Shown piece after piece: positions 1-44,004 of a stretch of 44,234 nucleotides of DNA (positions are counted from its first letter, which is position 1; every line of letters begins with the position of its first letter). Location: sequence record NC_047812.1; one strand, written 5' to 3'. Source of the stretch: Escherichia phage vB_EcoS_CEB_EC3a. The notes beneath the pieces are model-generated. The model was not told where the DNA came from, did not search any database, and was given only the letters and a program-made list of their open reading frames with translations. Made by a program: the position numbers and the translations under genes.

Positions 1-404
1 CTAAGCTGACACGTAACGCCTGTAGCGCGATGTAAGCCAATGCCTATCGTTACGCTAGTTACGCGAAGCTACGCCCAGACTTACACTATAAGTGCCTAAT
101 ATATATATATATCTTCTTTCTATTATTATTATTATTATTAATATTATTGTATGTAAGTCATGTAACAGGGGTCCTGGCGATATCTATATGTTTTTTCCTA
201 TCAGTTATAGCCGAGGCTATAATTTAGGGTATGGTGGGGGTGTTTTGGGGATGTTTGCATCGTTACACGCACGACACGCTACTCACATTGAGCTATAGCT
301 GGGCTGGCATGCCATTTCACGTAACGACCCCCAAAAGTTACCAAGAATTACACTTGACTACACGTGTAAGTCGGGATATTATGGACTCAACTTAAACGAG
401 AGGA
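1..404. repeat. Noncoding iteron/AT-rich module, copy A (paralog of 26380-26770)
   Basis: About 10 copies of ACGTAAC/GTTACG-type 7-9-mers in both orientations, a (TA)n plus (ATT)n tract at 99-150, and the 22-mer ACATTGAGCTATAGCTGGGCTG at 285-306, identical to 26677-26698. ORF 92..298 translates to low-complexity sequence. Confidence 0.8.
354..382 (+). promoter_or_regulatory. Strong sigma70-type early promoter (TTGACT-17 nt-TATTAT)
   Basis: TTGACT at 354-359, a 17-nt spacer, TATTAT at 377-382, followed by the AACGAGAGGAG leader and ATG at 414. Confidence 0.7.
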
Positions 405-413
405 GTGATAGAG

Positions 414-893
414 ATGAGCGAGAAGGTAACATTAGGCCAAGTGATTCGTGAGATGGTAAAAGCAGCGCTTAAGTCTGAGGATAAGCAGATCAGCGTGACA
501 CTCAACAAGATTGAGAGCCTTATTGGTGCCGAAGATGGTGGCCTACACAAGCTTAAGAGCTCATACATCTATAATACAACGGCTCGCATGCCTGAATTGA
601 GAGATGCAGGACTGAAGGCAACTCACCATTATGATGAAGAAAGGGGTATTAATGAATTTACTGGGAGTGAGATACTTGGAGACAAGAAGCTGGTTATCAA
701 ACTGATTCCAGGCTCGGCAAACATTGGAATCAGGAAGAAGACCAACGACGCGATCAAGAATGAGGCAATCACTGAGTTCAAGGCGAAGATTTCTAAGGTG
801 ATGCCAGACCTTTCTGAGTATGAGGGTGAAGCGCTTGCGGCAGCGATGAAGGCCATTAAAGATTACCGATTAATTATTGAGGAGATTAAATAA
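414..893 (+). CDS. Hypothetical early protein (159 aa)
   Basis: ORF track 405..893 starts at GTG. ATG 414 sits 8 nt after AGGAG (401-405). First gene behind the consensus promoter. Confidence 0.75.
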   Translation: MSEKVTLGQVIREMVKAALKSEDKQISVTLNKIESLIGAEDGGLHKLKSSYIYNTTARMPELRDAGLKATHHYDEERGINEFTGSEILGDKKLVIKLIPGSANIGIRKKTNDAIKNEAITEFKAKISKVMPDLSEYEGEALAAAMKAIKDYRLIIEEIK

Positions 894-1414
894 TGTTTGA
901 CTTTAAAGACAAACTAACAAGCGAGCAGATCATCAATATTGCACGTGCTGATGGTTATCCACTATTGCGAGTTGCAATCAATGCCAATGGATATCGTAGC
1001 TAAAATAAGTTCTGGGGTCAGCCTGATGCGTCAGAAGTATACAAAGATGAGGCGCTTGGGGTTCTGATTAAGCTAATCATGAAAATGGCAAGGAACGGCA
1101 AAGGAGTTGTCGGCATCAGATATCTATATGAAGGTGCTCGCAAGCTGAAACCATTTGCTGGGCGCGATGGAATGATGCTAGTGATCAAGGACAAGCTAAT
1201 TCCAGAGCTCGATAAGATGAATGTTACCTGTCTAATTGGAGATAAGGTTTACGTCAACCCTGCCTTGACGGATTTAAGCTGGCAACCAAACTTCAAAACT
1301 TACGAAGGTGAGCATGCTAGTAGACTACCATACCACTTGCGGTACAGTGAGGGTGAAGTGGAGATGGCTGTCGAGTTCTACCGGAAAGCTAAATCACTCC
1401 TGAACGGTGAATAG
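893..1414 (+). pseudogene. Internally deleted, nonsense-interrupted paralog of the 527-aa ATPase (40729..42312)
   Basis: One reading frame. MFDFKDKLTSEQIINIARADGYPLLRVAINANGYRS then TAA (1001-1003), then ...ARNGKGVVGIRYLYEGARKLKPF...CLIGDKVYVNP. These match the N-terminus (MFDFNEDKLSVEQ...RVAINANGYRQ) and C-terminus (GKNGKGVVGIRSLYEAARKVKPF...CLIGDKVYINP) of the full gene. The Walker core is missing. Confidence 0.7.
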
Positions 1415-1454
1415 CACGGATTGCTAAACAATGGATCGGGTAGTCAGCTATAAT
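1412..1454 (+). promoter_or_regulatory. Dyad-promoter module (TAGCACGGATTGCTA-22 nt-TATAAT)
   Basis: Core 1412-1426, 22-nt spacer, TATAAT 1449-1454, leader TACCACATCGACAAC. Confidence 0.65.
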
Positions 1455-1478
1455 TACCACATCGACAACAAAGAGGAA

Positions 1479-1685
1479 ATGAAGATGAAAACTATGATTA
1501 TCGAAGATTTCGCAGGTGACATCACTGAGGTGTCTGCTTCAGTATATTACGACGGCATCGTGAGCATTGACATTGACACGGATAACTTAGGCGATGAAAT
1601 TACTATGTCTCACTATACACCAGAGCAAGCGCGCAAACTGGCGGCGGCATTAATCATGGCGGCGGAAGAGTCAGAGAAGCAATGA
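1479..1685 (+). CDS. Hypothetical small early protein (68 aa)
   Basis: ORF 1431..1685 overlaps its own -10 box. ATG 1479 follows AAGAGGAA. Confidence 0.7.
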   Translation: MKMKTMIIEDFAGDITEVSASVYYDGIVSIDIDTDNLGDEITMSHYTPEQARKLAAALIMAAEESEKQ

Positions 1686-1698
1686 ATGAGAAATTATA

Positions 1699-1917
1699 AT
1701 GCAAGTATATACGAATAGTAATGGCGTAGAGTATTGTGTTGTTTACGGAGTGGTTCTTCGCACTGTTGGTGGCCTCGGGATCATCAACATTTCAGTGATC
1801 AAGCCTGAATCACTGGTGAAAGGAATCCAGGCCGGAATCTTCAGCTTTCACTCAACGCTGACGGCTAAGCAGTATGTTACCCTCGCCAACGCGGTTAAGT
1901 ACGGTTTTATCAAATAG
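1699..1917 (+). CDS. Hypothetical small early protein (72 aa)
   Basis: ORF track. The stop TAG is the first triplet of the next dyad module. Confidence 0.6.
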   Translation: MQVYTNSNGVEYCVVYGVVLRTVGGLGIINISVIKPESLVKGIQAGIFSFHSTLTAKQYVTLANAVKYGFIK

Positions 1918-1958
1918 CACTTTTTGTTAAAAAGGGGATTCATCCTGACTGGTGTAAT
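1915..1958 (+). promoter_or_regulatory. Dyad-promoter module, variant half-site (TAGCACTTTTTGTTA-23 nt-TGTAAT)
   Basis: Core 1915-1929, TGTAAT 1953-1958, leader CCCCACATCAACCAAAC. Confidence 0.45.
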
Positions 1959-2110
1959 CCCCACATCAACCAAACAAATGGAAGTTAAGTGACCATATAC
2001 GAACATAAATTCAGCAGTAGGGGTATTGATATGCTCCTGCACTATTTAGACGAAAAATACGCAAATCTCATGCTTAAGGCGCATGGTGGAACAATAACGA
2101 GGATTGAGAT

Positions 2111-2371
2111 ATGAGCAAGTACGACCGCGAGATTATTGGTATTGATGGCACAGTAACAACAGTAGATGTTTATCGCGTTCTTGATGCGTTCAGCGTATCT
2201 GACCCAGCCACTCAGCATGCGGTAAAGAAGATGCTTTGTATGGGGTTGCGTGGACACAAGGATTACATAACCGACCTTAACGACTCAATCGAGTCATTAC
2301 AGAAAGCCAAGGAGCTTTACGGGCAAAAGATGATTCATCAATCGGATAAATCAAATCTGCGTGGTAAATAG
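2111..2371 (+). CDS. Hypothetical early protein, DUF3310-like (86 aa)
   Basis: ORF track with SD AACGAGGA. The segment AVKKMLCMGLRGHKDYITDLNDSIESLQKA resembles the DUF3310 family by eye. Stop TAG lies in the next module. Confidence 0.65.
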   Translation: MSKYDREIIGIDGTVTTVDVYRVLDAFSVSDPATQHAVKKMLCMGLRGHKDYITDLNDSIESLQKAKELYGQKMIHQSDKSNLRGK

Positions 2372-2411
2372 CACGAATTGCTAAACCCTCTCCGCAGGGT
2401 TTTGTTATAGT
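2369..2411 (+). promoter_or_regulatory. Dyad-promoter module (TAGCACGAATTGCTA-22 nt-TGtTATAGT)
   Basis: Core 2369-2383, 22-nt spacer, extended -10 at 2403-2411. Confidence 0.7.
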
Positions 2412-2440
2412 TAGTTCACACCAAACGAGAGGAAAAAAAG

Positions 2441-2671
2441 ATGATTACAATTAACCTGTCAGAGAAAGATGCGTCAACACTCAAGCAGCTTCTTTCAGGA
2501 AATCCGGTGCACACTAATGTTTATAACTTTGGTGAAGTAGAAAGGGAGGTTATCGCACAAATAAACAACCAGCAATTCGACGTAAGTGACTTCGAAAGTT
2601 CTAGACAATACGAGGCGATGAGCGTCAATGCTGCATACCTGACCAACTGGGATAAGGCGACTAATAAATGA
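2441..2671 (+). CDS. Hypothetical small early protein (76 aa)
   Basis: ORF track; SD AACGAGAGGA upstream. Confidence 0.7.
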   Translation: MITINLSEKDASTLKQLLSGNPVHTNVYNFGEVEREVIAQINNQQFDVSDFESSRQYEAMSVNAAYLTNWDKATNK

Positions 2672-2994
2672 TTTACATCCACACATATGGCGTAGGCAAG
2701 TTCGGAAAAGAGATTCATCGCACTGTTCACGATACGAAGGAATCAGCCGAAGCAGCACAAAAAGTTCTAGGCGGTGAGTTCAAGGCTTACCGCGAATCCG
2801 ATGACTCAGTTGATTGCTGGCGTGTAGAGCACATGCGAAACGTGCTTGAAAGTGAAGTATCCGAGCTTATAGACAACATGACATGTCACGGCCCAGGCGG
2901 TCCATGGGAGGAGCCAGGATCACCGGAATGGGATTGCGAAAAAGTTGAAACTATGAACAAGATTAGCGATATAATTGATGGTGTTTATCAGTGA
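2668..2994 (+). CDS. Hypothetical early protein (108 aa)
   Basis: ORF track; ATGA overlap with the upstream gene. Confidence 0.7.
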   Translation: MIYIHTYGVGKFGKEIHRTVHDTKESAEAAQKVLGGEFKAYRESDDSVDCWRVEHMRNVLESEVSELIDNMTCHGPGGPWEEPGSPEWDCEKVETMNKISDIIDGVYQ

Positions 2995-3088
2995 TTTTTT
3001 GATAAAATGATGCATCCTTAACGCCTCTTGGCAGCAGAAGGTGCTCGGTGGCACAATCAAGGTTTGCGAGATAATTAAAGAATACAAA

Positions 3089-3131
3089 TAGCACTAATTG
3101 CTAAACCATCATTGGGGTAATTTGTTATAGT
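3089..3131 (+). promoter_or_regulatory. Dyad-promoter module (TAGCACTAATTGCTA-22 nt-TGtTATAGT)
   Basis: Core 3089-3103, TATAGT 3126-3131. Confidence 0.7.
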
Positions 3132-3161
3132 TACCACACCCAAACTAACGAGGTTATAAGA

Positions 3162-3266
3162 ATGAGTGAATTAATTAAAACTATCGCGGACTATCCATTT
3201 GCTTCGCTTTTTCTTGCTCTTGCAATATATGAAATTGTAAAGATTATTGTAAAATGTATTAAATAG
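3162..3266 (+). CDS. Small hydrophobic peptide (34 aa, one predicted TM helix)
   Basis: Hand-translated MSELIKTIADYPFASLFLALAIYEIVKIIVKCIK. SD AACGAGG; stop TAG in the next module. Below the ORF-track size cutoff. Confidence 0.6.
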   Translation: MSELIKTIADYPFASLFLALAIYEIVKIIVKCIK

Positions 3267-3306
3267 CACGAATTTCTAAAACATTATCGGGGTATCTTGC
3301 TATAGT
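3264..3306 (+). promoter_or_regulatory. Dyad-promoter module (TAGCACGAATTTCTA-22 nt-TGcTATAGT)
   Basis: Core 3264-3278, TATAGT 3301-3306. Confidence 0.65.
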
Positions 3307-3336
3307 TACCCCATCAAAACGAAACAGGAAGCAGAA

Positions 3337-3516
3337 ATGAAATTTCAACAAGGCGAGCCAAAGCTACAAGCCAACCACTTCGACGGCTACGCAACATTCA
3401 TCATTGCTCAGGCTTTCGGAATGCGTGAAGACCCACAGGTTCACACCATTCACATGACTGAAGAGCAGGCCCGAGAGTTGGCATACGAAATTCTAGAGCA
3501 ATTGAATAAGATTTAA
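3337..3516 (+). CDS. Hypothetical small early protein (59 aa)
   Basis: Hand-translated MKFQQGEPKLQANHFDGYATFIIAQAFGMRED...; SD CAGGAAGC. Confidence 0.65.
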   Translation: MKFQQGEPKLQANHFDGYATFIIAQAFGMREDPQVHTIHMTEEQARELAYEILEQLNKI

Positions 3517-3567
3517 CGCGCACAAAACGCATTCTTACGAACAATAATTTAAGTAAGGTGATTAATC

Positions 3568-3693
3568 ATGGAAGTGCAAGAGAGCGCCGTAGAGTGGTGC
3601 AAGAGAATGCAGGACGAAGCTAAGACGGGTGAAGAGGCGATGGCTTACTACGAGATGGCGCAAATGTGGATGGAACGGGAGAAGAAAGAATGA
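3568..3693 (+). CDS. Hypothetical small protein (41 aa)
   Basis: Hand-translated MEVQESAVEWCKRMQDEAKTGEEAMAYYEMAQMWMEREKKE; SD AAGGTG. Confidence 0.5.
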   Translation: MEVQESAVEWCKRMQDEAKTGEEAMAYYEMAQMWMEREKKE

Positions 3694-3833
3694 GTTTCAC
3701 TGAATACGTGATCGCATGCGAGCGACTGGTCTTTGATATGAAAACCTTCCACTGGTTCATCATTAAGGATTTAATCAAGCCTTATAAGCAGGGCGTTACG
3801 CCGGAGCGGTTTGTTAAGTCATTTTATAAATAG
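3690..3833 (+). CDS. Hypothetical small protein (47 aa)
   Basis: ATGA overlap with the upstream ORF; stop TAG is in the next module. Confidence 0.5.
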   Translation: MSFTEYVIACERLVFDMKTFHWFIIKDLIKPYKQGVTPERFVKSFYK

Positions 3834-3873
3834 CACGAATTGCTCAACGCAGTCGACACGGATGGCATATAAT
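3831..3873 (+). promoter_or_regulatory. Dyad-promoter module (TAGCACGAATTGCTC-22 nt-TATAAT)
   Basis: Core 3831-3845, TATAAT 3868-3873. Confidence 0.65.
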
Positions 3874-3903
3874 CACCTTACCAACACAACGAGAGATTGA
3901 GAC

Positions 3904-4044
3904 ATGAAGAACACATATAAATTTTATTATGAAGAAGAGTTTGTGGATGATTTAATTTACTTCAATGAGAAATATGGCGACGAGTTCGTCTGCAATGGGG
4001 ATGAAATGGAAGTGACTGCAAGCTTCAGTAGGGGGTTGAATTAA
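3904..4044 (+). CDS. Hypothetical small acidic protein (46 aa)
   Basis: Hand-translated MKNTYKFYYEEEFVDDLIYFNEKYGDEF...; SD AACGAGAGA. Confidence 0.55.
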   Translation: MKNTYKFYYEEEFVDDLIYFNEKYGDEFVCNGDEMEVTASFSRGLN

Positions 4045-4283
4045 TGTTCGGATTATCAGAAGCGCACTTTAACGCAGTTAAACGTCAGGCTGCAAAGTTG
4101 AACGAAGAGTACAGCAAGTTATCGCCAAAGCAGCGCAAGGATGATAAGCAGGTTGCAGCATTGATTTCGAAGATGTGGGAGCCAGTTTTTACAATCATTA
4201 GTCGGGACCGTTTTGTTTGGACTAGCGGATATCTTAAGGGACGTGTTGGTCATGACGAGAATGGGAATAGCCTTTATGAGTAA
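4044..4283 (+). CDS. Hypothetical early protein (79 aa)
   Basis: ORF track; TAATG overlap with the upstream gene. Confidence 0.7.
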   Translation: MFGLSEAHFNAVKRQAAKLNEEYSKLSPKQRKDDKQVAALISKMWEPVFTIISRDRFVWTSGYLKGRVGHDENGNSLYE

Positions 4284-4383
4284 GTTCATCGATTGCGTTA
4301 TTTACACGCTATGCGTAGCGCTGGCTTCGGCTTCGGTTATGTTAATCATTGCGGCGATTATGATGATGTTGGGGTATGTATGA
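4276..4383 (+). CDS. Small hydrophobic peptide (35 aa)
   Basis: Hand-translated MSKFIDCVIYTLCVALASASVMLIIAAIMMMLGYV; overlaps the upstream stop. Confidence 0.4.
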   Translation: MSKFIDCVIYTLCVALASASVMLIIAAIMMMLGYV

Positions 4384-4445
4384 GTGAGTTAACAATCTGG
4401 TTTATCGCGGGGCTGATTACTTGGGCTTACTTTTTAATCGTTTAG
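4380..4445 (+). CDS. Small hydrophobic peptide (21 aa)
   Basis: Hand-translated MSELTIWFIAGLITWAYFLIV; ATGA coupling to the previous micro-ORF. Confidence 0.3.
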   Translation: MSELTIWFIAGLITWAYFLIV

Positions 4446-4466
4446 ATGGAGATTGTTAAAAAGAGC

Positions 4467-4495
4467 TTGCATCACTGACCGGAATTATCTAATAT
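4467..4495 (+). promoter_or_regulatory. Sigma70-type promoter for the RNA gene cluster (TTGCAT-17 nt-TAATAT)
   Basis: TTGCAT 4467-4472, 17-nt spacer, TAATAT 4490-4495. Confidence 0.6.
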
Positions 4496-4504
4496 TAACC
4501 ACGT

Positions 4505-4661
4505 AGACAAACGAGGCCACCAGGTGGCAACGGCGCACGGAGCGCAACTACTAAGTCCGTTGCTCATTAAGTAGCGTAGGCGGCATTAAGACCTAGCGCA
4601 AATAGGCAGATTAACCGGCTGTATCAGGCAGCCCCGGAGCCGTAACCGGGAATCATCAAAA
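4505..4661 (+). ncRNA. Structured ~150-nt leader/unknown RNA preceding the tRNAs
   Basis: No credible ORF. Palindrome GCCACCAGGTGGC, 7-bp stem GCAACGG...CCGTTGC (4528-4564) enclosing GCGC-acgga-GCGC, direct repeats CATTAAG..TAGCG, hairpin CCCGG-agccgtaa-CCGGG. Confidence 0.3.
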
Positions 4662-4736
4662 GCTCTGCTAGCTCAACAGGACAGCAGCAACGACCTTCTA
4701 AGTCGTAGGTTACTGGTTCGAATCCAGTGCGGAGCG
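4662..4736 (+). tRNA. tRNA-Arg (anticodon UCU)
   Basis: Hand-folded cloverleaf. 7-bp acceptor GCTCTGC/GCGGAGC, anticodon stem ACGAC/GTCGT with loop CTTCTAA, T arm ACTGG-TTCGAAT-CCAGT, CCA encoded at 4737-4739. Confidence 0.85.
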
Positions 4737-4745
4737 CCAAATTAA

Positions 4746-4844
4746 CGTCGCGTTGCTAATGTTGGTTAAAGGGTGGAGCTTATACCTCCATAAAGCAATC
4801 TCCAGATAAGAGATGTAACGCAGGTTCGATTCCTGCCGCGACGA
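4746..4844 (+). tRNA. Aberrant 99-nt tRNA-like gene (possible Ile anticodon UAU or GAU; may be a pseudo-tRNA)
   Basis: Perfect 7-bp acceptor CGTCGCG/CGCGACG, canonical T arm GCAGG-TTCGATT-CCTGC, CCA encoded. The D region is poor, and two competing anticodon hairpins exist (TGGAG-CTTATAC-CTCCA and ATCTC-CAGATAA-GAGAT). Confidence 0.5.
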
Positions 4845-4862
4845 CCAATAAAGGAGTTCATT

Positions 4863-5045
4863 ATGTGGGATGTGAAGTTGTCCATTCGCTTAATGGGCCG
4901 CTCGTGCAAGAATTGCACTCAAGATTATATCGCGTCAGTTGCCGCAATCAGCGCTGAGGATGCGGTAGCGAAAGTAAAGGATATGTCAGGCGCTGACCCT
5001 GACACCCACAAATTCCTGGTAGCTTACGTTCGTGAGCAAAAGTAA
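4863..5045 (+). CDS. Hypothetical protein (60 aa)
   Basis: ORF track; SD AAAGGAG 6 nt upstream. Confidence 0.65.
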   Translation: MWDVKLSIRLMGRSCKNCTQDYIASVAAISAEDAVAKVKDMSGADPDTHKFLVAYVREQK

Positions 5046-5058
5046 AAAGTGTTATACC

Positions 5059-5085
5059 CTCGTTAAGTTTCGTTTCTCTCGTTGT
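5059..5085 (+). ncRNA. Anti-leader segment complementary to the shared early-gene leader/SD
   Basis: CTCGTTAAGTTTCGTTTCTCTCGTTG is the reverse complement of CAACGAGAGAAACGAAACTTAACGAG, i.e. the motifs AACGAGAG, GAAACGAAAC and TTAACGAG found in the module leaders. It lies directly upstream of terminator 5091-5113. Confidence 0.35.
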
Positions 5086-5090
5086 TTTTA

Positions 5091-5113
5091 GCCCTCGCTT
5101 GAGGGCTTTTTTT
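5091..5113 (+). terminator. Intrinsic terminator
   Basis: GCCCTC-gctt-GAGGGC followed by T7. Confidence 0.8.
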
Positions 5114-5124
5114 CGTCTGCAATA

Positions 5125-5133
5125 TGGTATAAT
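5125..5133 (+). promoter_or_regulatory. Extended -10 promoter (TGgTATAAT) for the packaging/head operon
   Basis: TGGTATAAT lies 24 nt upstream of the terS ATG; SD AAGGAGG. Confidence 0.5.
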
Positions 5134-5156
5134 CTGACCTCAACAAAGGAGGATTT

Positions 5157-5663
5157 ATGAGCAAAGCAGCATTAAAGATGGGCGAGGGAAATTTCAAGGC
5201 GCTCTACAACAAGAAGTATGGCGATATTGCTATGGTGGCAATCAACCGCAAGTACACGCCGGAAGAGGTATTTGACTTTGCCGTTCGATACTTCTCCTGG
5301 GCTGAGAGTGAGGCAATCAAAGCCATTGAGACGGCGGCATTCCATGGAGTTGTCAGTGAAAACCTTGTACACAAGCCTAGGGTGTTCACATTAACCGGGC
5401 TGGCGCTATTTATGGGTGTTAACATCAATAGATTCGCTCGGTGGCGTACTGAGGCTGGGTACTCTGATGTGATGGAATTCATTGATAGCGTAATCTACGA
5501 GCAGAAATATCAGCTTGGCGTTGCGGGTATCATCAACTCCACAATCGTTGGTAAAGAACTTGGCATTGATAAGCCGCAGGAGATTACCATTAGCAACAAC
5601 TCAACAGCTAACGATGTTGACAGTATGAAGGAAGCTCTGGAATCTGTAATTAGCAAGCTATAA
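5157..5663 (+). CDS. terS: Terminase small subunit
   Basis: 168 aa immediately upstream of TerL. HTH-like segment FTLTGLALFMGVNINRFARWR, typical of small terminases. Confidence 0.75.
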   Translation: MSKAALKMGEGNFKALYNKKYGDIAMVAINRKYTPEEVFDFAVRYFSWAESEAIKAIETAAFHGVVSENLVHKPRVFTLTGLALFMGVNINRFARWRTEAGYSDVMEFIDSVIYEQKYQLGVAGIINSTIVGKELGIDKPQEITISNNSTANDVDSMKEALESVISKL

Positions 5664-5680
5664 CAATAAGAGGGTATAAC

Positions 5681-7246
5681 ATGTCTTTAGTATGGGAAGA
5701 AATGACCATTCAGGAAAAGATGGCCGTTAAGGCGATATCAGAACACAGCTTCGAGGGTTTCCTTCGTTGCTGGTTCCAGATTACACAAGGCGAGCGATAC
5801 ATCCCTAACTGGCATCACAAGTACTTGTGCAGAATCATTGATGAGATTATCGCAGGAGATCGCAAGGACACCATCATTAACATAGCACCAGGCAGCGGAA
5901 AGACGGAAATTGCCTCAATCCACTTCCCGGCCTATTCGATGGTTAAGCTTAGGAAGGTGCGCAACCTTAACATCTCTTTTGCTGACTCCCTGGTTAAGCG
6001 TAACTCGAAGCGAGTACGTGACCTTATCAAGTCTCAAGAATTTCAGTCACTCTGGCCATGCAAATTTGGCACCTGCAAAGACGATGAGCTTCAGGTTCTT
6101 GATGAGAGTGGCAAGGTTAGATTTGAGTCAATATCAAAGGCGGCTGGAGGCCAGATTACTGGCGCTCGCGGTGGGTACATAACCGAAACATACAGCGGAG
6201 CCGTTCTTTTGGATGACTTTGACAAACCCGCAGATATGTTATCAGCAGTGTACCGCTCGAATAATCACGTAATGCTTAAAAATACGATTCGCTCACGTCG
6301 AGCCAGTTCTGTAAAAGGCAAAGCGACACCAATCATTTCGATACAGCAGCGGCTTCACGTCAATGACTCAACCTATTTCATGATGGAAGGCGGCATGGGT
6401 ATCGAATTCGATTTGATTAAGATACCAGCATTAGTTACTGAGGATTACCTAGACACACTACCTGAATGGATTAAAGAACAGTTTGAAGAGGATGTCCTTA
6501 GTAGTGAATACATAGAGCGCGATGGAGTAAGGTATTACAGCTACTTCCCTAAAAAGGAGTCAGTCAATGACTTGGTTGCGATGTGGGATAGTGACCCTTA
6601 CACCTTCCTTAGTCAGTATCAACAAGAACCAGTAGCTCTAGGTGGCAACCTTATTAACGTAGATTGGTTCCAGCGCCTTAGCGACACGTTCAGACCTCCA
6701 GCTAAGTACGATTATAGATTTATAACTTGCGATACAGCTATGACTACAAAAAGTTATAGTGACTTCTCTGTCCTTCAATTGTGGGGTTATAAAGATGCTA
6801 AGATTTACCTTATTGACCAGCGCAGGGGGAAATGGGAAGCGCCCGAGTTAGAGGCAGAGTTAATCGATTTCGAGAAGAAATCAAGGGCAACCAGTCAATC
6901 GGATGGTATCCTCCGAAAGATTATCATCGAGAAGAAAGCATCTGGAATCGGACTCATTCAATCAGCAAGTCGAGTCATGAGAACGCCAGTGGAACCTTAT
7001 GTTCCTGATAATGACAAGTTAACAAGGGTGATGAGTGCGCTGCCACAGATTAAGGCTGGTAACGTAGTTCTTCCTGAGTCTGCGCCGTGGTTAAGCGGAT
7101 TGCTTACTGAGATTGCGGCATTTACCGCTGACGACAGCCATAATCACGACGACCAAATTGATACCATGACAATGGCTATCAACCTGGTTCTGAACATTGC
7201 GGATGATCCTAAGTCGAGACTGATGCGCATAGCGGGAATGAAATAG
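5681..7246 (+). CDS. terL: Terminase large subunit
   Basis: 521 aa; Walker A PGSGKTE, Walker B-like VLLDDFDK, C-terminal nuclease-like acidic motifs (HDDQIDT). Position upstream of the portal gene. Confidence 0.9.
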   Translation: MSLVWEEMTIQEKMAVKAISEHSFEGFLRCWFQITQGERYIPNWHHKYLCRIIDEIIAGDRKDTIINIAPGSGKTEIASIHFPAYSMVKLRKVRNLNISFADSLVKRNSKRVRDLIKSQEFQSLWPCKFGTCKDDELQVLDESGKVRFESISKAAGGQITGARGGYITETYSGAVLLDDFDKPADMLSAVYRSNNHVMLKNTIRSRRASSVKGKATPIISIQQRLHVNDSTYFMMEGGMGIEFDLIKIPALVTEDYLDTLPEWIKEQFEEDVLSSEYIERDGVRYYSYFPKKESVNDLVAMWDSDPYTFLSQYQQEPVALGGNLINVDWFQRLSDTFRPPAKYDYRFITCDTAMTTKSYSDFSVLQLWGYKDAKIYLIDQRRGKWEAPELEAELIDFEKKSRATSQSDGILRKIIIEKKASGIGLIQSASRVMRTPVEPYVPDNDKLTRVMSALPQIKAGNVVLPESAPWLSGLLTEIAAFTADDSHNHDDQIDTMTMAINLVLNIADDPKSRLMRIAGMK

Positions 7247-7286
7247 CACAAATTGCTAAACACTAAAGCCACGGATGGCGTATAGT
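7244..7286 (+). promoter_or_regulatory. Dyad-promoter module (TAGCACAAATTGCTA-22 nt-TATAGT)
   Basis: Core 7244-7258 contains the terL stop; TATAGT 7281-7286. Confidence 0.65.
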
Positions 7287-7315
7287 TACTTCACACAAAC
7301 GAGAGGAGAAGAAAG

Positions 7316-7648
7316 ATGAAGGCAGTATTTAAAGGTTATAAAAAAGCTGGTTGTTTGGAATTTACTATTGGTAAGATTTATGAGCTATCAACGGCAACTG
7401 AGGCTTTCGGATTCTTAAAAGTGACTGATGACGATGGATTTAATGGAGTAATTATCCCAGGTGACACCTATGATTTCGAGGTGCTGATTCCAGATGAATT
7501 TATCAATAAAAAAAAGCAATTTAAATATTACATTAATGGCGAAGTGGTTACTAAGACAAAGTTCGATGATACGCTGTTATGCGTCAAGGATTTTAAATCT
7601 GATGGCATTGACACATCATCAATCAAGTTCGAAGTAAAATTCGAGTAA
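7316..7648 (+). CDS. Hypothetical protein (110 aa), moron between terL and portal
   Basis: ORF track. Has its own module promoter and its own terminator, and looks visibly AT-rich. Confidence 0.7.
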   Translation: MKAVFKGYKKAGCLEFTIGKIYELSTATEAFGFLKVTDDDGFNGVIIPGDTYDFEVLIPDEFINKKKQFKYYINGEVVTKTKFDDTLLCVKDFKSDGIDTSSIKFEVKFE

Positions 7649-7670
7649 CCACAAAAGCTATGATAAACTA

Positions 7671-7692
7671 GCCCCTACATGGGGCTTTTTTT
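7671..7692 (+). terminator. Intrinsic terminator
   Basis: GCCCC-tacat-GGGGC followed by T7. Confidence 0.8.
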
Positions 7693-7705
7693 ATTGGAGA
7701 AAAAC

Positions 7706-8974
7706 ATGGTCAAGACAGACAGCTACGCCAATATCTTTCTCGGCGGCAGTGATGGTAGTGAGATTTACGGAAGTTTACAGAATCAAGCGCCTACAATTCT
7801 GGCTTCTCTTTATGCGGATAACGCGCTGGTGCGTAGAATTATCGACACAATCCCGGAGACGGCATTGGCGGCAGGGTTCCACATTGATGGTATTGATGAT
7901 GAGCCAGCATTTTGGTCGCGCTGGGACTACTTAGAGCTAACAAAACACATCAATGAAGCCTGGTCGTGGGCTAGATTGTTCGGAGGCTCTGCAATTGTTG
8001 CTATCGTTAAGGATAATAGAGCATTAACAAGTCCTGTCAGAGAAGGTGCAGAACTTGAAACGGTACGCGTTTACGACCGCACACAAGTAAAAGTACAAAC
8101 TCGAGAGGAGAATCCACGCAACGCACGTTTTGGTAATCCGCTAACCTATCGCATCACCACTAATGAGAGCGATATGTTCTACGATGTGCATTACAGTCGC
8201 ATTCACATCATTGACGGAGAGCGAATCCCTAACGCAATGCGTCGGCAGAATGATGGCTGGGGTCGCAGCGTTCTCTCCAGTGACATTCTTGACTCAATCA
8301 AGGATTACACCAACTGCGAAAGGCTGGCGACTCAACTGCTCAAGCGTAAACAGCAAGCGGTTTGGAAAGTCAAGGACCTGGCATTGCTTTGTGATGATAG
8401 TGAAGGAGTTGGCGCGGCTCGTTTACGTCTCGCTCAAGTTGATAACAACAGCGGAGTTGGTCAGGCAATTGGCATTGATGCGGAATCGGAAGAATACAGC
8501 ATTCTGAACTCTGATATTGGTGGGATTGATGCGTTCCTGGATAAGAAGTTCGACAGAATAGTTGCTCTGAGTGGTATTCATGAAATAATCCTGAAGAACA
8601 AGAACGTCGGCGGCTTATCATCAAGCCAGAATACAGCGCTTGATACATTCCATAAGTTAGTCGATCGCAAGCGTAACGCTGAGCTACTGCCGATTCTAGG
8701 GTTCCTGATTCCGTTCATTTCAGACGAGCAAGAATGGTCAGTTGAGTTTAATCCCTTAGCTCATGAGTCAGGCAAGGATAAAGCTGAGATTCTGGAGAAG
8801 AACGTAAGCAGCATTGCGACGCTAATTGCATCTGGCGCCATGGATAAGAACGAAGCACGTGATACACTACGCACTATCGCACCAGAGATTAAGATTGGTG
8901 ATAATGATATTCAGGCCGAGGAATCGGAGTTAATTACAGAGACAGAGGTTGTTAATGAAGAAATTGCGATATGA
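7706..8974 (+). CDS. Portal protein
   Basis: ORF 7679..8974 begins inside the terminator. ATG 7706 follows GGAGAAAAAC. 422 aa, placed between terL and the protease/scaffold gene. Confidence 0.8.
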   Translation: MVKTDSYANIFLGGSDGSEIYGSLQNQAPTILASLYADNALVRRIIDTIPETALAAGFHIDGIDDEPAFWSRWDYLELTKHINEAWSWARLFGGSAIVAIVKDNRALTSPVREGAELETVRVYDRTQVKVQTREENPRNARFGNPLTYRITTNESDMFYDVHYSRIHIIDGERIPNAMRRQNDGWGRSVLSSDILDSIKDYTNCERLATQLLKRKQQAVWKVKDLALLCDDSEGVGAARLRLAQVDNNSGVGQAIGIDAESEEYSILNSDIGGIDAFLDKKFDRIVALSGIHEIILKNKNVGGLSSSQNTALDTFHKLVDRKRNAELLPILGFLIPFISDEQEWSVEFNPLAHESGKDKAEILEKNVSSIATLIASGAMDKNEARDTLRTIAPEIKIGDNDIQAEESELITETEVVNEEIAI

Positions 8975-10043
8975 CAGTGCGAAGGTGAAAGCCAGATTTG
9001 ATGAAAACGGCTTTCTGGTTGATACCCCTATCGTTGCGCGTATCGGGGTGCAAACCTATTACCTTCCAGACGGCACGGAACGGAGAGAATTTAGACCAGC
9101 CTCAGAGGTCTTTAAGCCTGATTCTCTGGCTAGTTATCAGGGTAAGCCAATTACATTAGGTCATGTGTTTGTTAACTCAGATAATGCTAAAGAGGTCGTT
9201 GTAGGCGCGGTATCTGGCTCAGCGATGCGCGAAGATTCAAATGTGATTGTTCCACTAACTGTTTACGACAAGGAATCAATCGAGAAGGCCAAAAATGGAA
9301 TTGCTGGTGAGCTGTCTGTTGGGTACTCAACTGTTGACGTTGAGTCTAAAGGATGGGGCAGTAACGAAACTGGTGAGTATAAGCTAGATGGCGAGTATCA
9401 ATCACAGGATGAAATTCCTTCTGACTGGGTTAGATTCGATGCGTTGCAAACTGAAATTAAAGTAAACCATGTCGCGCTGGTATACAAAGGGAGAGCCCAA
9501 GTAGCAAAGTTAAATTTTGACGCTCAACAGGAAAACCCGTATACTACTGACGTTGATATCAATAAAGAGGATAAACAGGAAATGATTAAGATTAAACTCG
9601 ACGGCGCGAAGGAATTTGAAGTCGCCCCGGAAGTCGCTTCTCACATCGAAGCGCTGAACGCAAAGGCTGACACCGCAATCGCAGAGCGCGATTCTCTGAA
9701 AGCTAAAGTAGATGCAATGCCAGCTGAAATCGAAGCTGCCGTTGCTAAAGCGAAAGCTGATGCTGATGCCCTAGCCGCTCTGGTTGCTGTTGCTGCTGAG
9801 GCTGGTGTTAAGGCTGACGGTCTGGATGCTAAAGGCATTAAAGTTTCTTACGTTAAAGAAGTCTCCGGTCTTGATGTTAGTGAGAAGTCTGACGCATACA
9901 TCGACGCGGCATTCGACATTGCCAAAGAATCTGATAAAATGGCTGAAGTGCGTAAAGCGACTACCGCTTCCGACAAATCTGACAGCGCCGATGAGCCTAA
10001 GAAATTAGACCCGCGTGCTCGTTTAGCTAAAATTAAGAAATAA
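8955..10043 (+). CDS. Prohead protease/scaffold-like protein (DUF2213-like N-terminus, Ala/Lys/Asp-rich coiled-coil C-terminus)
   Basis: ATG 8955 sits 6 nt after AGAGG. Synteny: portal, this gene, then capsid. The C-terminus is AEIEAAVAKAKADADALAALVAVAAEAG. Confidence 0.6.
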   Translation: MKKLRYDSAKVKARFDENGFLVDTPIVARIGVQTYYLPDGTERREFRPASEVFKPDSLASYQGKPITLGHVFVNSDNAKEVVVGAVSGSAMREDSNVIVPLTVYDKESIEKAKNGIAGELSVGYSTVDVESKGWGSNETGEYKLDGEYQSQDEIPSDWVRFDALQTEIKVNHVALVYKGRAQVAKLNFDAQQENPYTTDVDINKEDKQEMIKIKLDGAKEFEVAPEVASHIEALNAKADTAIAERDSLKAKVDAMPAEIEAAVAKAKADADALAALVAVAAEAGVKADGLDAKGIKVSYVKEVSGLDVSEKSDAYIDAAFDIAKESDKMAEVRKATTASDKSDSADEPKKLDPRARLAKIKK

Positions 10044-10055
10044 GGAGTTATAAAC

Positions 10056-10568
10056 ATGGCAATTCGTTCCGTAGCACTGGCTGGTATGGTTTCTGATACT
10101 TCTCTGTATAACATCGACGGCGCTTGTGTAGTTGGTGGTGCAACAGCAATTCCGGCTGGCACTGTTGTTGGTGTAACGGCTGCTCAGCCTGTAGATGGAC
10201 ACAAAGTTGTTGGCCTCCCTGCTGTAACTGGTACACCAGTTAAACCTTATGGTGTTGTTGTTAAATCTCATTACGAGACTCCAGATGGCACAGCTCGCGT
10301 AAATGAAGCAGTTAACGTAATGACTCATGGTCGCATCTGGGTTCGCACAAGTCTCACTTCTGCACCTGCATTTGGTGCTCCAGTTCTGGTATCTAAAAAA
10401 GGATTGGTTGAAGAAGCAGGAGCGGTCGCAACTGGTTGGACTTTTGCTGGTGGTTATGTGTCCGCTTATGCAGGTGGAGCCGACCCAATTAAGCAAGGTG
10501 AAAGCGTTGATGGCGCACTAGTTGAAGTCCAGCTTATCCAGTCCGCAAACTCAACTGTCGCAGCTTAA
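10056..10568 (+). CDS. Putative head decoration/capsid accessory protein
   Basis: 170 aa, Gly/Val/Ala-rich, directly upstream of the major capsid gene; SD AAGGAG. Confidence 0.45.
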   Translation: MAIRSVALAGMVSDTSLYNIDGACVVGGATAIPAGTVVGVTAAQPVDGHKVVGLPAVTGTPVKPYGVVVKSHYETPDGTARVNEAVNVMTHGRIWVRTSLTSAPAFGAPVLVSKKGLVEEAGAVATGWTFAGGYVSAYAGGADPIKQGESVDGALVEVQLIQSANSTVAA

Positions 10569-10586
10569 TAGCCAAGACATATAAAG

Positions 10587-10606
10587 CCTCCTTCGGGAGG
10601 TTTTTT
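10587..10606 (+). terminator. Intrinsic terminator
   Basis: CCTCC-ttcg-GGAGG followed by T6. Confidence 0.8.
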
Positions 10607-10625
10607 ATTGCCTATCATCTCATCA

Positions 10626-10653
10626 TTGCGTGGTCTAAAAACTCGTGTATAAT
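10626..10653 (+). promoter_or_regulatory. Putative sigma70 promoter for the major capsid gene (TTGCGT-16 nt-TATAAT)
   Basis: TTGCGT 10626-10631, TATAAT 10648-10653. Confidence 0.45.
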
Positions 10654-10691
10654 GAACCCGTAGACACCTAACTGAAAAGGAACAATAAAGA

Positions 10692-11636
10692 ATGGCCATT
10701 AAATTTGATGCAGAACAAGCAAAAATCACCGCTCACCTCGAGCAAATGGGCGTAGAGAAAGCCGATGCCGCTGGCATCTGGACCGTTAAGCAGCTTACCG
10801 CTACTCTGAATCGTGCTTACGAAAAAGAATACCCGGATAACTCCGTTGTTAATATCTTCCCTGTAAGTAACGAAATCCCAAGTCACGCAAAATACTTTGA
10901 ATACCCGGAATTCGATGGCGTAGGTATTGCTCAAATTATCGCTGATTACTCTGATGACCTGCCGCTGGTTGATGCTTTCATGACTGAGAAGCAAGGTAAA
11001 GTGTTCCGTTTCGGTAACGCATTCCTAATTTCTACTGATGAAATTAAAGCGGGCGCCGCAACTGGTCAGTCTCTGTCAACTCGCAAACAGGCTCTGGCTT
11101 TCGAAGCGCACGACAACCTGCTGGATAAACTGGTTTGGTCTGGTTCCACTCCTCACGGTATCGTAAGCGTATTCGATCAGCCTAACATCAACAACGTTGT
11201 TGCAACGCCAGACTGGAGCGAGCCGCTTAACGCAGTCAATGACGTAACCGCGATGATTGATGCAGTTGAGACTTCAACTCAGGGTATCCATCATGTGACT
11301 GATATTCTACTTCCGGCATCCTCTCGTCGAGTAATGCAGCGCCTGGTTCCGAACACAACCCTGAGCTATGGTGAGTTGTTCACTCGTAACAACCCTGGCC
11401 TGACTATTCGTTTCCTGCAGTTCCTGGATAACTACGATGGCGCAGGTGGTAAAGCCGCTCTGGCGTTTGAGAAAAACCCGCTGAACATGTCTATCGAGAT
11501 TCCAGAAGCTACAAATGTACTTCCTGGTCAACCGAAAGATTTGCACTTTAAGTACCCGGTAACTTCTAAAGCGACAGGTTTGATTGTTTATCGTCCTCTT
11601 ACGATGGCTGTAATCAAAGGAATCACCTTCGCGTAA
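10692..11636 (+). CDS. Major capsid protein
   Basis: 314 aa, bracketed by a strong terminator on each side (high-expression unit), at the position of the capsid gene in T1-like head modules. Confidence 0.8.
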   Translation: MAIKFDAEQAKITAHLEQMGVEKADAAGIWTVKQLTATLNRAYEKEYPDNSVVNIFPVSNEIPSHAKYFEYPEFDGVGIAQIIADYSDDLPLVDAFMTEKQGKVFRFGNAFLISTDEIKAGAATGQSLSTRKQALAFEAHDNLLDKLVWSGSTPHGIVSVFDQPNINNVVATPDWSEPLNAVNDVTAMIDAVETSTQGIHHVTDILLPASSRRVMQRLVPNTTLSYGELFTRNNPGLTIRFLQFLDNYDGAGGKAALAFEKNPLNMSIEIPEATNVLPGQPKDLHFKYPVTSKATGLIVYRPLTMAVIKGITFA

Positions 11637-11642
11637 TAAATC

Positions 11643-11664
11643 GCCCTCTTCGGAGGGCTTTTTT
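11643..11664 (+). terminator. Intrinsic terminator
   Basis: GCCCTC-ttcg-GAGGGC followed by T6. Confidence 0.8.
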
Positions 11665-11728
11665 ACGTCTGTACCAAATGGATTTGTTCGGTTATAATCA
11701 CTCAATCAGATAAACAAAGGAGACAAAA

Positions 11729-11974
11729 ATGATTCGTTTAGAACACACTGGAGCTTGCCTTATCGTTTACAAAGGTGAGAAATATTTGCCTGGTGACACT
11801 TTCGAGGTTGATGTAATTTGCGACGGGCTCAAGCGTTTAATCGCAGAGGGTAAACTCACCATTGAGGGTGACACCAAAGCAACCAAACAAATCGCGCAAG
11901 AAGTTGTTAGCAAGAAAAAGCGCAAAGAACCGAAAACCATCTCCGAGGCTGAGACTGGTAACGAGTACAAATAA
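11729..11974 (+). CDS. Hypothetical head-module protein (81 aa)
   Basis: ORF track; SD AAGGAG. Confidence 0.65.
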   Translation: MIRLEHTGACLIVYKGEKYLPGDTFEVDVICDGLKRLIAEGKLTIEGDTKATKQIAQEVVSKKKRKEPKTISEAETGNEYK

Positions 11975-12015
11975 CAAACAGGGCGCTTCGGCGTCCTTTA
12001 TTGTATGGGGCTAAT

Positions 12016-14355: not shown

Positions 14356-14388
14356 TAACTCATCGAAACGAAATGAGAGATTAAAGAA

Positions 14389-18744: not shown

Positions 18745-19500
18745 ATGTTAAGTCCAAAGTTTGAAAATCAGTTGCAAAGTCTTTTCCCAGGCGAGATTGT
18801 GACTCTAATCCAGGTTGACGGAACCTCATTTGGCTCTCTCGTTTATTCGTTCCACAATGAGAACATTTCATACACGCCAGAGGAAATCATGCTAGCCCAG
18901 ATGAATGGGGAGCCGCTACCAGAGAAGACTATTACATTTCGCGGTGAAGAGTATGGCCCTAGACCTTTCGGTATATCTGGCATCAATATGACCTCTGACG
19001 GCAAGGCCAACAAAGTTACACTAACAGTATCAAACGTAGACCAGCGCATTAGCGCCTTGATTCGAACATACAACGGACTTGTTAAAGCTAAGGTTACCAT
19101 CTGGATTACTACGCGAGATAACATCAATGAAGACGGGAGTATTGCTGATGGAGATTATCGCAAATTCGTTTACTTCATTGAGCGACCTAAGCAGGTTGAT
19201 TACAAAACTGCGTCATTTGAGCTTAGTAGCCCGATGGATATGGATGGCATTTATATCCCAGCGAGACTTGTTCAGTCTGTTTGCTACTGGGCTTCTAGGG
19301 GTTGGTATCGTAGCGGGAATGGGTGTGCTTATGCTGGAAATAGATACTTTAATAAGGATGATGAGCCAGTGGCAGATCCTTCATTAGACTTCTGTGCAGG
19401 AACTGTTAACAGTTGCAAGCTTAGATTTGGTGAGAATAATCAGTTAGATTTTGGCGGCTGCGCTGCCGCAAGCCTTCAGGCTAAAGCCAACCAGAGTTAA
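18745..19500 (+). CDS. Minor tail protein, lambda gpL-like
   Basis: ATG 18745 follows GGAGAAAATC. The C-terminal Cys cluster (CYW...GNGC...C..TVNSC) resembles the gpL Fe-S ligands. Confidence 0.8.
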   Translation: MLSPKFENQLQSLFPGEIVTLIQVDGTSFGSLVYSFHNENISYTPEEIMLAQMNGEPLPEKTITFRGEEYGPRPFGISGINMTSDGKANKVTLTVSNVDQRISALIRTYNGLVKAKVTIWITTRDNINEDGSIADGDYRKFVYFIERPKQVDYKTASFELSSPMDMDGIYIPARLVQSVCYWASRGWYRSGNGCAYAGNRYFNKDDEPVADPSLDFCAGTVNSCKLRFGENNQLDFGGCAAASLQAKANQS

Positions 19501-36624: not shown

Positions 36625-36662
36625 TACCACATCGAAACGAAACACATAGAGAGAGAAACAAA

Positions 36663-43146: not shown

Positions 43147-43175
43147 TTTTTATCTCCTCTCGTTTCGATGAAGTA

Positions 43176-43978: not shown

Positions 43979-44004
43979 ATCTATCTCCTCGTTTTGATGA
44001 GTTA

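Follow-up and report, generated by a model that had tools for sequence, protein, structure and literature searches.

The plus-strand segment 5046-5113 of Escherichia phage vB_EcoS_CEB_EC3a (NC_047812.1) consists of the 3′ untranslated tail, 44 nucleotides (nt) long, and the Rho-independent terminator of a conserved gene of 60 amino acids (60-aa gene). Within this 3′ untranslated region (3′UTR) lies an invariant core, UCUCUCGUUGU (5075-5085), which is the exact 11-nt complement of ACAACGAGAGA (plus strand, 3886-3896), a leader segment that carries the Shine-Dalgarno (SD) region of gene 3904-4044. We tentatively propose, without giving it an even chance, that the core could be an anti-ribosome-binding-site (anti-RBS) element that acts by long-range or trans pairing, chiefly in feedback on its own operon. 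The stretch of DNA that was analysed, hereafter called the window, comprises 44,234 nt and amounts essentially to a whole T1-like siphovirus genome (subfamily Braunvirinae, family Drexlerviridae). An initial annotation of the segment had described it as a candidate trans-acting small RNA (sRNA) or 3′UTR regulator complementary to the leaders of many early genes. That interpretation is partly supported and is to be narrowed to the 11-nt core and the leader of its own operon.

The core and the leader of its presumed operon

Among the leader-type matches to the 3′UTR, ACAACGAGAGA is the longest (11 nt; the 12-nt terL match is treated separately below). The core duplex 3886-3896 :: 5075-5085 comprises 11 perfect base pairs with -17.3 kcal/mol, and among the start regions of the window that of gene 3904 ranks first as duplex partner of the tail (1/72, -27.2 kcal/mol). 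The equivalent partner ranks 2/73 in CY1 and about sixth in ECH1. When 3880-5113 was folded as one RNA, the helix was predicted to close the molecule with pair probabilities of 0.89-0.9999, and in the modelled minimum free energy (MFE) structure the pairing would reach over the AUG.

The promoter unit of the transcription unit that apparently ends at 5113 is found on the plus strand at 3828-3875 and reads ATAGCACgaaTTGCTCAA, N, TATAATCA. With 3841-3875 it belongs to the TGCTAAA-N20-TATAGTTA family of the phage, and its upstream half agrees with the 21-nt direct repeat of phage TLS. No plus-strand terminator was predicted between 3875 and 5090, and leader and tail therefore appear as the two ends of one unit. 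From this arrangement we infer a transcription unit of ~1.2 kb, closed by the tail, that comprises the 60-aa gene, the tRNAs and three small genes. Each of the 10 Braunvirinae examined has, 1.0-1.5 kb 5′ of the 60-aa gene, a last promoter unit whose leader is ATCAACACAACGAGAGATTGAGA or closely similar to it, irrespective of the gene behind it. A leader-tail helix of 11-13 bp is present in each of these phages (10/10), and two of the three substitutions found in the leader turn a Watson-Crick pair into a G-U pair.

In the mechanism that we propose, the core would pair with ACAACGAGAGA, the SD-bearing leader of the first cistron of the unit. The pairing could take place in the unprocessed transcript as a long-range 5′-3′ helix or, alternatively, in trans after RNase P/RNase E or tRNA processing has freed a terminator-bearing 3′ fragment; tRNA processing would split the RNA that joins leader and tail. 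Occlusion of the SD and the start codon would lower translation or stability, and the main effect would be negative feedback on the first cistron of the own operon. A weaker effect might fall on four other AACGAGAG-type sites, at which 8 nt could pair, in the start regions of genes 414, 2441, 7316 and 42967(-). That the leader of the apparent own operon pairs best with the core and is the partner kept most widely points to feedback or long-range cis pairing and not to a global early-to-late switch.

Conservation of the tail

The conservation analysis is based on an alignment of 16 distinct Braunvirinae sequences, which were taken from GenBank phages and from IMG/VR; one metagenome scan added 9 contigs. 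In the distal half of the tail (5046-5066) 12 of 21 sites are variable, which is about the rate of third codon positions in the adjacent gene (36/60). In the proximal half (5067-5089), in comparison, 6 of 23 sites vary, significantly fewer than the 36/60 third positions (Fisher p = 0.007), and no variant of the core occurs among the 25 distinct sequences (16 from phages and IMG/VR, 9 metagenome contigs). These include TR2 and CY1, whose 60-aa gene is only 79% identical (about 21% diverged). In both phages 9 extra nt separate the core from the hairpin, which shows that the core is not tied to the terminator at a fixed distance. Judged from this alignment, only the terminator-proximal half of the tail looks selected. 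Conservation of the segment in relatives, which the initial annotation had proposed as a check, was thus found for the proximal half and the core but not for the distal half.

The tail had been said to concatenate the complements of the three most conserved leader elements. Only the complement of the AACGAGAG-type leaders is conserved; those of GAAACGAAAC and TTAACGAGG are not. In ECH1, IME542, TR2 and CY1 the segment GUUUCGUUUC, the complement of GAAACGAAAC, is replaced by CATCTCTCTC, in RNA letters (U)UUCAUCUCUC, while the leaders of these phages keep GAAACGAAAC. For this element the complementarity is lost where the leaders are conserved, an outcome that the initial annotation itself had named as contradicting its proposal.

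A wider search for covariation in 67 IMG/VR loci, 16 loci from one metagenome scan and the phage GenBank records yielded no new variants of core or leader. BLAST of the 44-mer against 50,697 phage records returned only the same locus of about 80 Braunvirinae, with no source copy and no other context. No comparable element is annotated in any of these about 80 relatives, and in the literature searched no transcriptome or sRNA report for T1-like phages and nothing comparable for Drexlerviridae was found. Within this scope, the earlier statement that no described equivalent in T1-like phages is known is supported.

Outside the Braunvirinae, the Rogunavirinae apart, a gene of ~76 aa follows the 60-aa gene, and 8-24 nt without anti-leader sequence separate it from the terminator. 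In Nouzillyvirus, Tempevirinae and Webervirus (p111, PH1062, F115, Jahat, U136B, Sushi) the 60-aa gene overlaps the start of this gene. The product of the ~76-aa gene looks like a membrane protein; the gene is missing from Braunvirinae and Rogunavirinae, and the 44-nt tail occupies its place.

Layout of the tail and its terminator

The identity of the hairpin and the U7 tract as a Rho-independent terminator is certain. The terminator at 5090-5113 (plus strand) has a 7-bp stem with 5 G-C pairs, the loop GCUU and a U7 tail; the hairpin AGCCCTC-GCTT-GAGGGCT occupies 5090-5107, and the T run extends to 5113 (7 T including the last stem base). No other terminator predicted within 1-12000 is as strong, and all subfamilies have a hairpin with T tract at the corresponding position, built from stems of different sequence (CY1, Sd1, p111, F115, Jahat and U136B). 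Folding of the isolated 68-nt RNA left the 5′ 44 nt unpaired in front of the terminator hairpin (-12.5 kcal/mol). The layout of a single-stranded seed followed by a GC hairpin and a U7 tail, as initially described, is borne out by this unpaired 5′ part, the 7-bp stem and the U7 tract. For the Hfq-binding module, a U tail of at least 6-7 nt is regarded as the threshold. The U7 tail and the sequence GUUGUUUUU immediately 5′ of the stem provide the U tail and the single-stranded stretch of Hfq-type sRNAs. In addition, AAG/UUU at 5066/5067 would fit a loose RNase E motif.

The 44-nt spacer between stop codon and hairpin is the longest in the genome, in which the others measure about -2 to 26 nt and typically 3-7 nt. 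The plus strand of the tail is 68% pyrimidine and belongs to the top 0.36% of 44-nt sense-strand windows. The distal part of the 3′UTR (5046-5066, plus strand) contains TGTTATACC at 5050-5058 and, at 5058-5066, the complement of TTAACGAGG, while the proximal part GUUUCGUUUCUCUCGUUGUUUUU (5067-5089, plus strand) contains the core. The 26-mer CTCGTTAAGTTTCGTTTCTCTCGTTG occurs a single time in the window. All the features that had been described initially are present, but their coordinates were off by 1-4 nt; the 26-mer, for instance, is located at 5059-5084 and not at 5059-5085.

A search of Rfam 15 over 4000-5400 at E values up to 10 was passed by tRNA matches alone and by no sRNA family. The best non-tRNA match, AaHKsRNA20, reached 24.2 bits in comparison to a gathering score of 43 (E = 0.42), and this score is probably driven by the terminator.

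Further readings of the segment were rejected. A minus-strand gene that uses the RBS-like sequence lacks a suitably spaced start codon as well as an open reading frame (ORF), the ATG ORF of A110b being just 9 codons long. A decayed tandem copy of the terminator-promoter junction, with which the tail shares CCCTCG and TTTCGT, was not significant (p = 0.12-0.7). An anti-terminator hairpin formed by the upstream CCCUCG and the 3′ arm appeared by eye far weaker than the terminator, and CCCUCG is mutated in the Veterinaerplatzvirus clade.

Promoter-leader units and complementarity to start regions

In a pattern scan, the phage was found to carry at least 13 promoter-leader units of the form TGCTAAA-N20-TATAGTTA-C(C/T)xCA(T/C)C-(G/A)AAACGA(G/A)A...SD...ATG, with unit ends at 1456, 2413, 3133, 3308, 3875, 7288, 14357, 28063 and 36626 on the plus strand and at 44003, 43174 and 26321 on the minus strand. 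The family (TGCTAAA-N20-TATAGTTA-CCACATCGAAACGA..SD..ATG) is also present in ECH1, CY1 and Sd1 and is common to Braunvirinae and Rogunavirinae. At least at 3830-3848, ATAGCAC-N3 precedes the TGCTAAA box, and this upstream box together with ATAGCAC-N3 is the 21-nt direct repeat of phage TLS. The repeat, aaATAGCACnnnTTGnTAAAA, is also found in T1, Rtp and Rogue1, and no function has been assigned to it (PMC11447400). The distance of 22 nt from TTGCTA to TATAGT is too far for a canonical -35/-10 pair. As a separate observation, terminator-like hairpins with a T run are located inside promoter-unit spacers, between TGCTAAA and the -10 box (window 2379-2413; CY1 21823-21789; Sd1 44625-44659), and the termination of one module and the initiation of the next therefore overlap.

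With respect to these TLS-type repeat units (PMC11447400), the proposed targets of the core belong to the family and the reverse complement of the tail resembles the leader/SD part of the unit, whereas the tail itself is not a member. It is inverted, lacks the TTGnTAAA, TTGCTAAA and TATAGTTA boxes and has neither a minus-strand start codon nor an ORF. The tail thus belongs neither to an Rfam family nor to the promoter-leader repeat family that it mirrors.

The 8-mer AACGAGAG occurs 8 times in the window compared with 1.22 expected, a number that was reached in none of 100 shuffles. Its sites start at 395, 2424, 3888, 7298 and 26715 on the plus strand and at 5076, 18836 and 43157 on the minus strand. 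The site 395-402 (plus strand), an 8-nt complement of 5076-5083, belongs to the start region of gene 414-893, and those at 2424-2431 (plus strand), 7298-7305 (plus strand) and 43157-43164 (minus strand) belong to the start regions of gene 2441-2671, of gene 7316-7648, annotated as a late-region virion protein, and of the minus-strand gene 42967-43146, respectively. The site 18836-18843, where the plus strand reads CTCTCGTT, is the only other sense-strand anti-leader 8-mer and lies within the minor tail gene 18745-19500. The element GAAACGAAAC is matched 10/10 at 36634 (plus strand), 25545 (minus strand) and 5067 (minus strand) and 9/10 at 14365. A site reported for TTAACGAGG near 3145 does exist but reads CTAACGAGG, which is an 8/9 match. 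Both GAAACGAAAC and (C/T)TAACGAGG are over-represented in the window because the promoter-leader unit is repeated at least 13 times.

The complementarity between the tail and predicted start regions was compared with dinucleotide shuffles of the 44-mer (5046-5089). Exact complements of at least 8 nt were found in 13-14 start regions vs 4.4 +/- 2.3 in shuffles (p about 0.001-0.003), and those of at least 10 nt in 4 start regions vs 0.4. For the diverged tail of CY1, matches of at least 10 nt, new ones included, were obtained in 5 start regions vs 0.47 (0/400 shuffles). Reverse-complement local alignment to start regions gave a mean of 24.0 for the top five in comparison to 18.6 +/- 1.5, a value reached in 0/500 shuffles. 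By 8-mer counts and by k-mer and alignment shuffles, the complementarity to the leader/SD family that had been claimed initially is statistically real. Reversed, the tail reads as a complete leader with the SD TAACGAGG and the spacer TATAAC, in which the start codon is missing. The tail aligns best with three start regions, those of gene 3162, terL and gene 25282, with ...GAAACTTAACGAGGGTATAAcac aligned to CCAAACTAACGAGGTTATAAgaATG (3162) and AAGAGGGTATAACATG (terL).

A striking match involves terL: 5050-5061 is the 12-nt complement of the terL start region GAGGGTATAACA (5670-5681), and the match comprises 14 nt in ECH1 and 13 nt in IME253. A specific pairing of 5050-5061 with the terL start was rejected, because it is not co-conserved (Rtp, RobRod40, 2725-N35 and one IMG/VR relative keep the UTR motif without that start region) and lies within the half of the tail that varies at the third-position rate.

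Evaluation of the anti-RBS reading and its alternatives

Several observations weigh against an anti-RBS function of the core. The third leader substitution, found in Veterinaerplatzvirus, the largest clade, is a G-to-U change that creates a central mismatch in the core helix and leaves a 5+8-bp alternative. There is no compensatory covariation, since both partners are nearly invariant and own-genome pairs are no better than cross-genome pairs, and the extension of the helix past the 11-bp core is not significant (p = 0.08-0.09). The conservation test is based on 23 sites in phylogenetically related sequences, and the conservation of the leader could simply reflect a promoter-proximal RBS. At 4468-4496 a weak sigma-70-like sequence, TTGCAT-N17-TAATAT, is present, from which the part that runs from the tRNAs to the 60-aa gene could perhaps also be transcribed separately. 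The element is absent from the other subfamilies of Drexlerviridae; for the different conserved tract ATCTCGCAATG of Rogunavirinae of the Sd1 type, neither a leader partner nor significant complementarity to start regions was found. Moreover, the hybridisation energy of the whole tail to start regions is no better than that of same-composition shuffles (mean p = 0.07, best p = 0.2). The prediction of RNA-RNA interactions with the leaders, proposed in the initial annotation, thus singled out the own-operon leader as the first of 72 partners, but its energies overall did not exceed those of shuffles. Any CU-rich tract pairs well with purine-rich ribosome-binding sites, and thermodynamic target prediction (duplex, cofold) was discarded as a discriminator, as purine/pyrimidine composition dominates it and no separation from shuffles was obtained. 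An excess of k-mers and alignments without an excess of energy means that the signal is a resemblance of sequence families. The steps that lead from a conserved complement to a regulator are inferential and the evidence is purely computational; the tract could still be an inert leftover.

Such a leftover is nearly as likely as the anti-RBS element. The tail might be an inert lineage-specific spacer, e.g. an inverted scrap of leader and RBS that was left behind when the ~76-aa gene was lost; the terminator alone would then be functional and the likeness to leaders would be due to descent. This would agree with a reverse complement that reads as a complete start region minus its start codon, with a signal that resides in exact, homology-like k-mers and not in hybridisation energy, with a distal half that varies at about the third-position rate and with the absence of covariation. 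It would also agree with the extra gene which other subfamilies have here, just 8-24 nt before the hairpin, and with the finding that two of the three elements named in the initial annotation are not co-conserved with their proposed targets. Against an inert spacer stand the variability of the proximal half below that of third positions (p = 0.007) and a core that is invariant even in the ~21%-diverged lineages. In CY1 the diverged tail is still significantly complementary to start regions, by way of new matches as well, and BLAST finds neither a source copy nor another context for the 44-mer. Furthermore, anti-SD-like tracts in mRNAs are normally selected against (PMC12697547).

The initial annotation had gone further than the anti-RBS reading and envisaged an Hfq-type sRNA of ~50-70 nt, own-transcribed or processed, that carries three anti-leader seeds and shuts off early mRNAs at the early-to-late transition. 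We consider this full model unlikely, although the layout of unpaired seed, hairpin and U7 tail, the true enrichment of leader complements, the U-rich stretch immediately 5′ of the hairpin and the location at the 3′ end of a unit whose tRNAs require processing are all compatible with it. The extended -10-like sequence TGTTATACC at 5050-5058, to which attention had been drawn, is indeed present, but its TATACC lacks the T at -7, the promoter scan passed over it, and A110b, Msk, TR2 and CY1 carry changes in it. The complements of GAAACGAAAC and TTAACGAGG are not conserved while the leaders are. Pairing across the ribosome-binding regions of many early mRNAs was overstated, because exact 8-mers match five start regions only, one of them (7316) in the late region, and the energy is not above that of shuffles. 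No Rfam family is matched either. An own promoter, a global early shut-off and a dependence on Hfq are unsupported. In the same way we regard it as improbable that a terminator-bearing RNA from the 3′ end of the tRNA operon is a dedicated anti-leader riboregulator, whose conserved CU-rich core would pair with the extended SD (AACGAGAGA) and combine feedback on its own operon with a coordinate turn-down of all mRNAs that have a AACGAGAG leader.

Still more doubtful is an occlusion of terS in cis, by which the tract would pair in readthrough RNA with the terS RBS (CAACAAAGGAGG) and terS would be translated only from transcripts of its own promoter, as for e, soc and 49 of T4. Both the MFE structure of 5040-5175 and the RNAalifold consensus pair UCUCU/GUUG with CAAC/GGAGG, and this pairing is kept in 10 of 11 aligned sequences. 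The readthrough RNA is, however, no more stable than shuffles (z = 0.17), the helix is missing from the centroid structure, the covariation term amounts to -0.24 kcal/mol and terS does not rank among the 20 best duplex partners. The tract is also unaltered in JeanPiccard, Rtp and IME253, where three genes plus a second terminator lie between it and terS, and the core fits AACGAGAGA perfectly but GGAGG only through wobble pairs. Least probable of all is a DNA-level site, in which three minus-strand AACGA(G/A) repeats (AACGAGAG, AACGAAAC and AACGAGGG) at 9-10 bp spacing would bind a phage or host protein such as a regulator of leader DNA or the terminase small subunit at pac: the repeats are roughly helically phased and just 5′ of terS, several deposited genomes are opened nearby and orientation independence would account for the inverted copy, but just one of the three repeats is conserved, the opening of genomes before terS is an annotation convention, SD function already explains the motif in leaders, and pac of TLS has been assigned elsewhere by similarity to P22 (PMC11447400).

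Comparison with known systems

If the proposed pairing is real, the tail would work like an icaR-type 3′UTR anti-SD and like 3′UTR-derived sRNAs, and among phages it would resemble c4 of P1/P7. In Staphylococcus aureus, an anti-SD in the icaR 3′UTR pairs with the 5′UTR of the same mRNA (PMC3868564). Distal pyrimidine-rich anti-SD-like sequences are described to pair with ribosome-binding sites hundreds of nt away and to repress, and they are otherwise depleted from genes (PMC12697547). As in icaR and in this long-range anti-SD folding, a far-downstream pyrimidine-rich anti-SD of the phage complements the 5′ SD of apparently the same transcript, and by analogy blocked initiation and faster decay would be predicted. 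Unlike icaR, the phage is virulent and the unit is polycistronic and contains tRNAs, where processing would turn cis into trans pairing. Its partner is a phage-specific extended SD (AACGAGAGA) that is common to several genes.

A second parallel is provided by the 3′UTR-derived, Hfq-dependent sRNAs of enterobacteria, a class to which CpxQ, DapZ and SroC belong. As in MalH (PMC8081044), the seed is located directly 5′ of its own Rho-independent terminator with a long U tail, the 3′UTR is more conserved than silent sites, and the RNA would arise by processing and not from its own promoter. In contrast to the MalH type, the seed is CU-rich and targets SDs, and its best target is the own operon.

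Phage RNAs that block ribosome-binding sites include c4 of P1/P7, sar of P22 and OOP of lambda, and trans-acting sRNAs are known with PreS of lambda and VpdS of VP882 (reviewed in PMC12197685). The tail would be similar to c4, sar and OOP in that a phage RNA pairs around the ribosome-binding site of a phage mRNA, and c4 is likewise processed from a transcript that carries its targets. Unlike the tail, all these RNAs belong to temperate phages, where they regulate immunity or host genes, and c4 is a structured RNA with its seeds in loops. None of them has been reported from Drexlerviridae or from the terminator-proximal 3′UTR of a tRNA operon. In T4, RegB cuts in GGAG, RegA acts as repressor and RBS-sequestering hairpins are formed in the early transcripts of e, soc and 49. 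The post-transcriptional shut-off of T4 early genes (PMC3014915) is similar in aim to what the initial annotation had proposed, i.e. a lowered translation of a class of mRNAs via their SD regions, but T4 uses proteins or local cis hairpins and not trans or long-range RNA.

Genome context

The plus-strand order is a small-gene block, tRNA-Arg, an atypical tRNA-like element, the 60-aa gene, 5046-5113, the terS promoter, terS and terL. Around 5046-5113 the sequence shares 92-97% identity with vB_EcoS_UALMA_PCEc3, Veterinaerplatzvirus isolates, RobRod40, Msk and others. The tRNA-Arg(UCU) at 4662-4739 (plus strand), found by ARAGORN and scored with 55.5 bits by the Rfam tRNA model, is within the unit that apparently ends at 5113. 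Located 5′ of it is a GC-rich non-coding stretch of 216 nt (4446-4661, plus strand) that has no Rfam match and contains TTGTTAAAA (4454-4462); RobRod40, ECH1, TR2 and Sd1 have a gap of 200-280 nt at the same place. The tRNA-like element at 4746-4847 (plus strand) is atypical in its anticodon-loop insertion and long extra arm and reaches 41.3 bits with the Rfam tRNA model, the gathering score being 29. It is missed by default ARAGORN and, with the intron option, reported as 'tRNA-SeC(tca)', its anticodon loop carrying an insert of 14 nt. Its counterpart in PCEc3 is annotated as a 102-nt tRNA-Ile, and no counterpart was found in RobRod40, 2725-N35 and ECH1. An anticodon that reads UGA would, if real, be of interest.

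The 60-aa gene is an ORF at 4863-5045 (plus strand, stop codon 5043-5045) with a CxxC motif and no significant Pfam match. Homologues are present in 787 Drexlerviridae records, in every case just 5′ of terS. The sequence TGgTATAAT at 5125-5133 (plus strand), read as an extended -10 promoter for terS, bounds the element and is not part of it; CTGCAAT-N-TATAAT 5′ of terS is kept family-wide. The genes terS (5157-5663, plus strand) and terL (5681-7246, plus strand) follow, as identified by ORF and annotation.

The junction of terS and terL (5664-5681 in the window, and its equivalents) is polymorphic among relatives. In the window, ECH1 and Msk, a conserved GAGGGTATAAC(A)ATG start region leads straight into terL; in PCEc3 a small ORF occupies the junction, and RobRod40, 2725-N35, Rtp and CY1 have an HNH endonuclease gene with a TLS-type repeat (TATAGCACTTTTTGTTAAAAG) 5′ of it. 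Between terminator and terS, JeanPiccard (800-1245) and also IME253 and Rtp contain three small genes with a consensus TTGACA promoter, and copies of the junction 'hairpin-T7-CGTCTGCA' are found at both borders of this insert. Such bordering copies would be the pattern expected of module exchange by recombination at the conserved terminator/promoter joint. In IME542 and JeanPiccard, an ORF of ~30 aa lies between the terS promoter and terS. Among the GenBank entries matched (PP134917.1, MG065688.1 and others), 'Pseudomonas phage PsgS01F' has a length of 44,679 bp and match statistics that are the same as those of coliphage PCEc3, and several entries labelled 'Campylobacter phage' are normal genomes of T1-like coliphages. 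These records probably carry wrong host labels or are contaminants.

Conclusions

T1-like phages lack genes for an RNA polymerase or a sigma factor, and no role has been attributed to their repeated promoter-leader units (PMC11447400). If the tail is inert, the region is to be annotated as 3′UTR plus terminator and not as an sRNA gene. A dedicated riboregulator, if true, would be the first described in Drexlerviridae and a purely RNA-based counterpart of RegA/RegB of T4. If the anti-RBS reading of the core is true, it would supply a phage example of the principle, now emerging, that anti-SD sequences located distally in mRNAs repress strongly (PMC12697547). Post-transcriptional control in a very common phage family would then become accessible through a conserved anti-RBS tract directed against the promoter-leader family.

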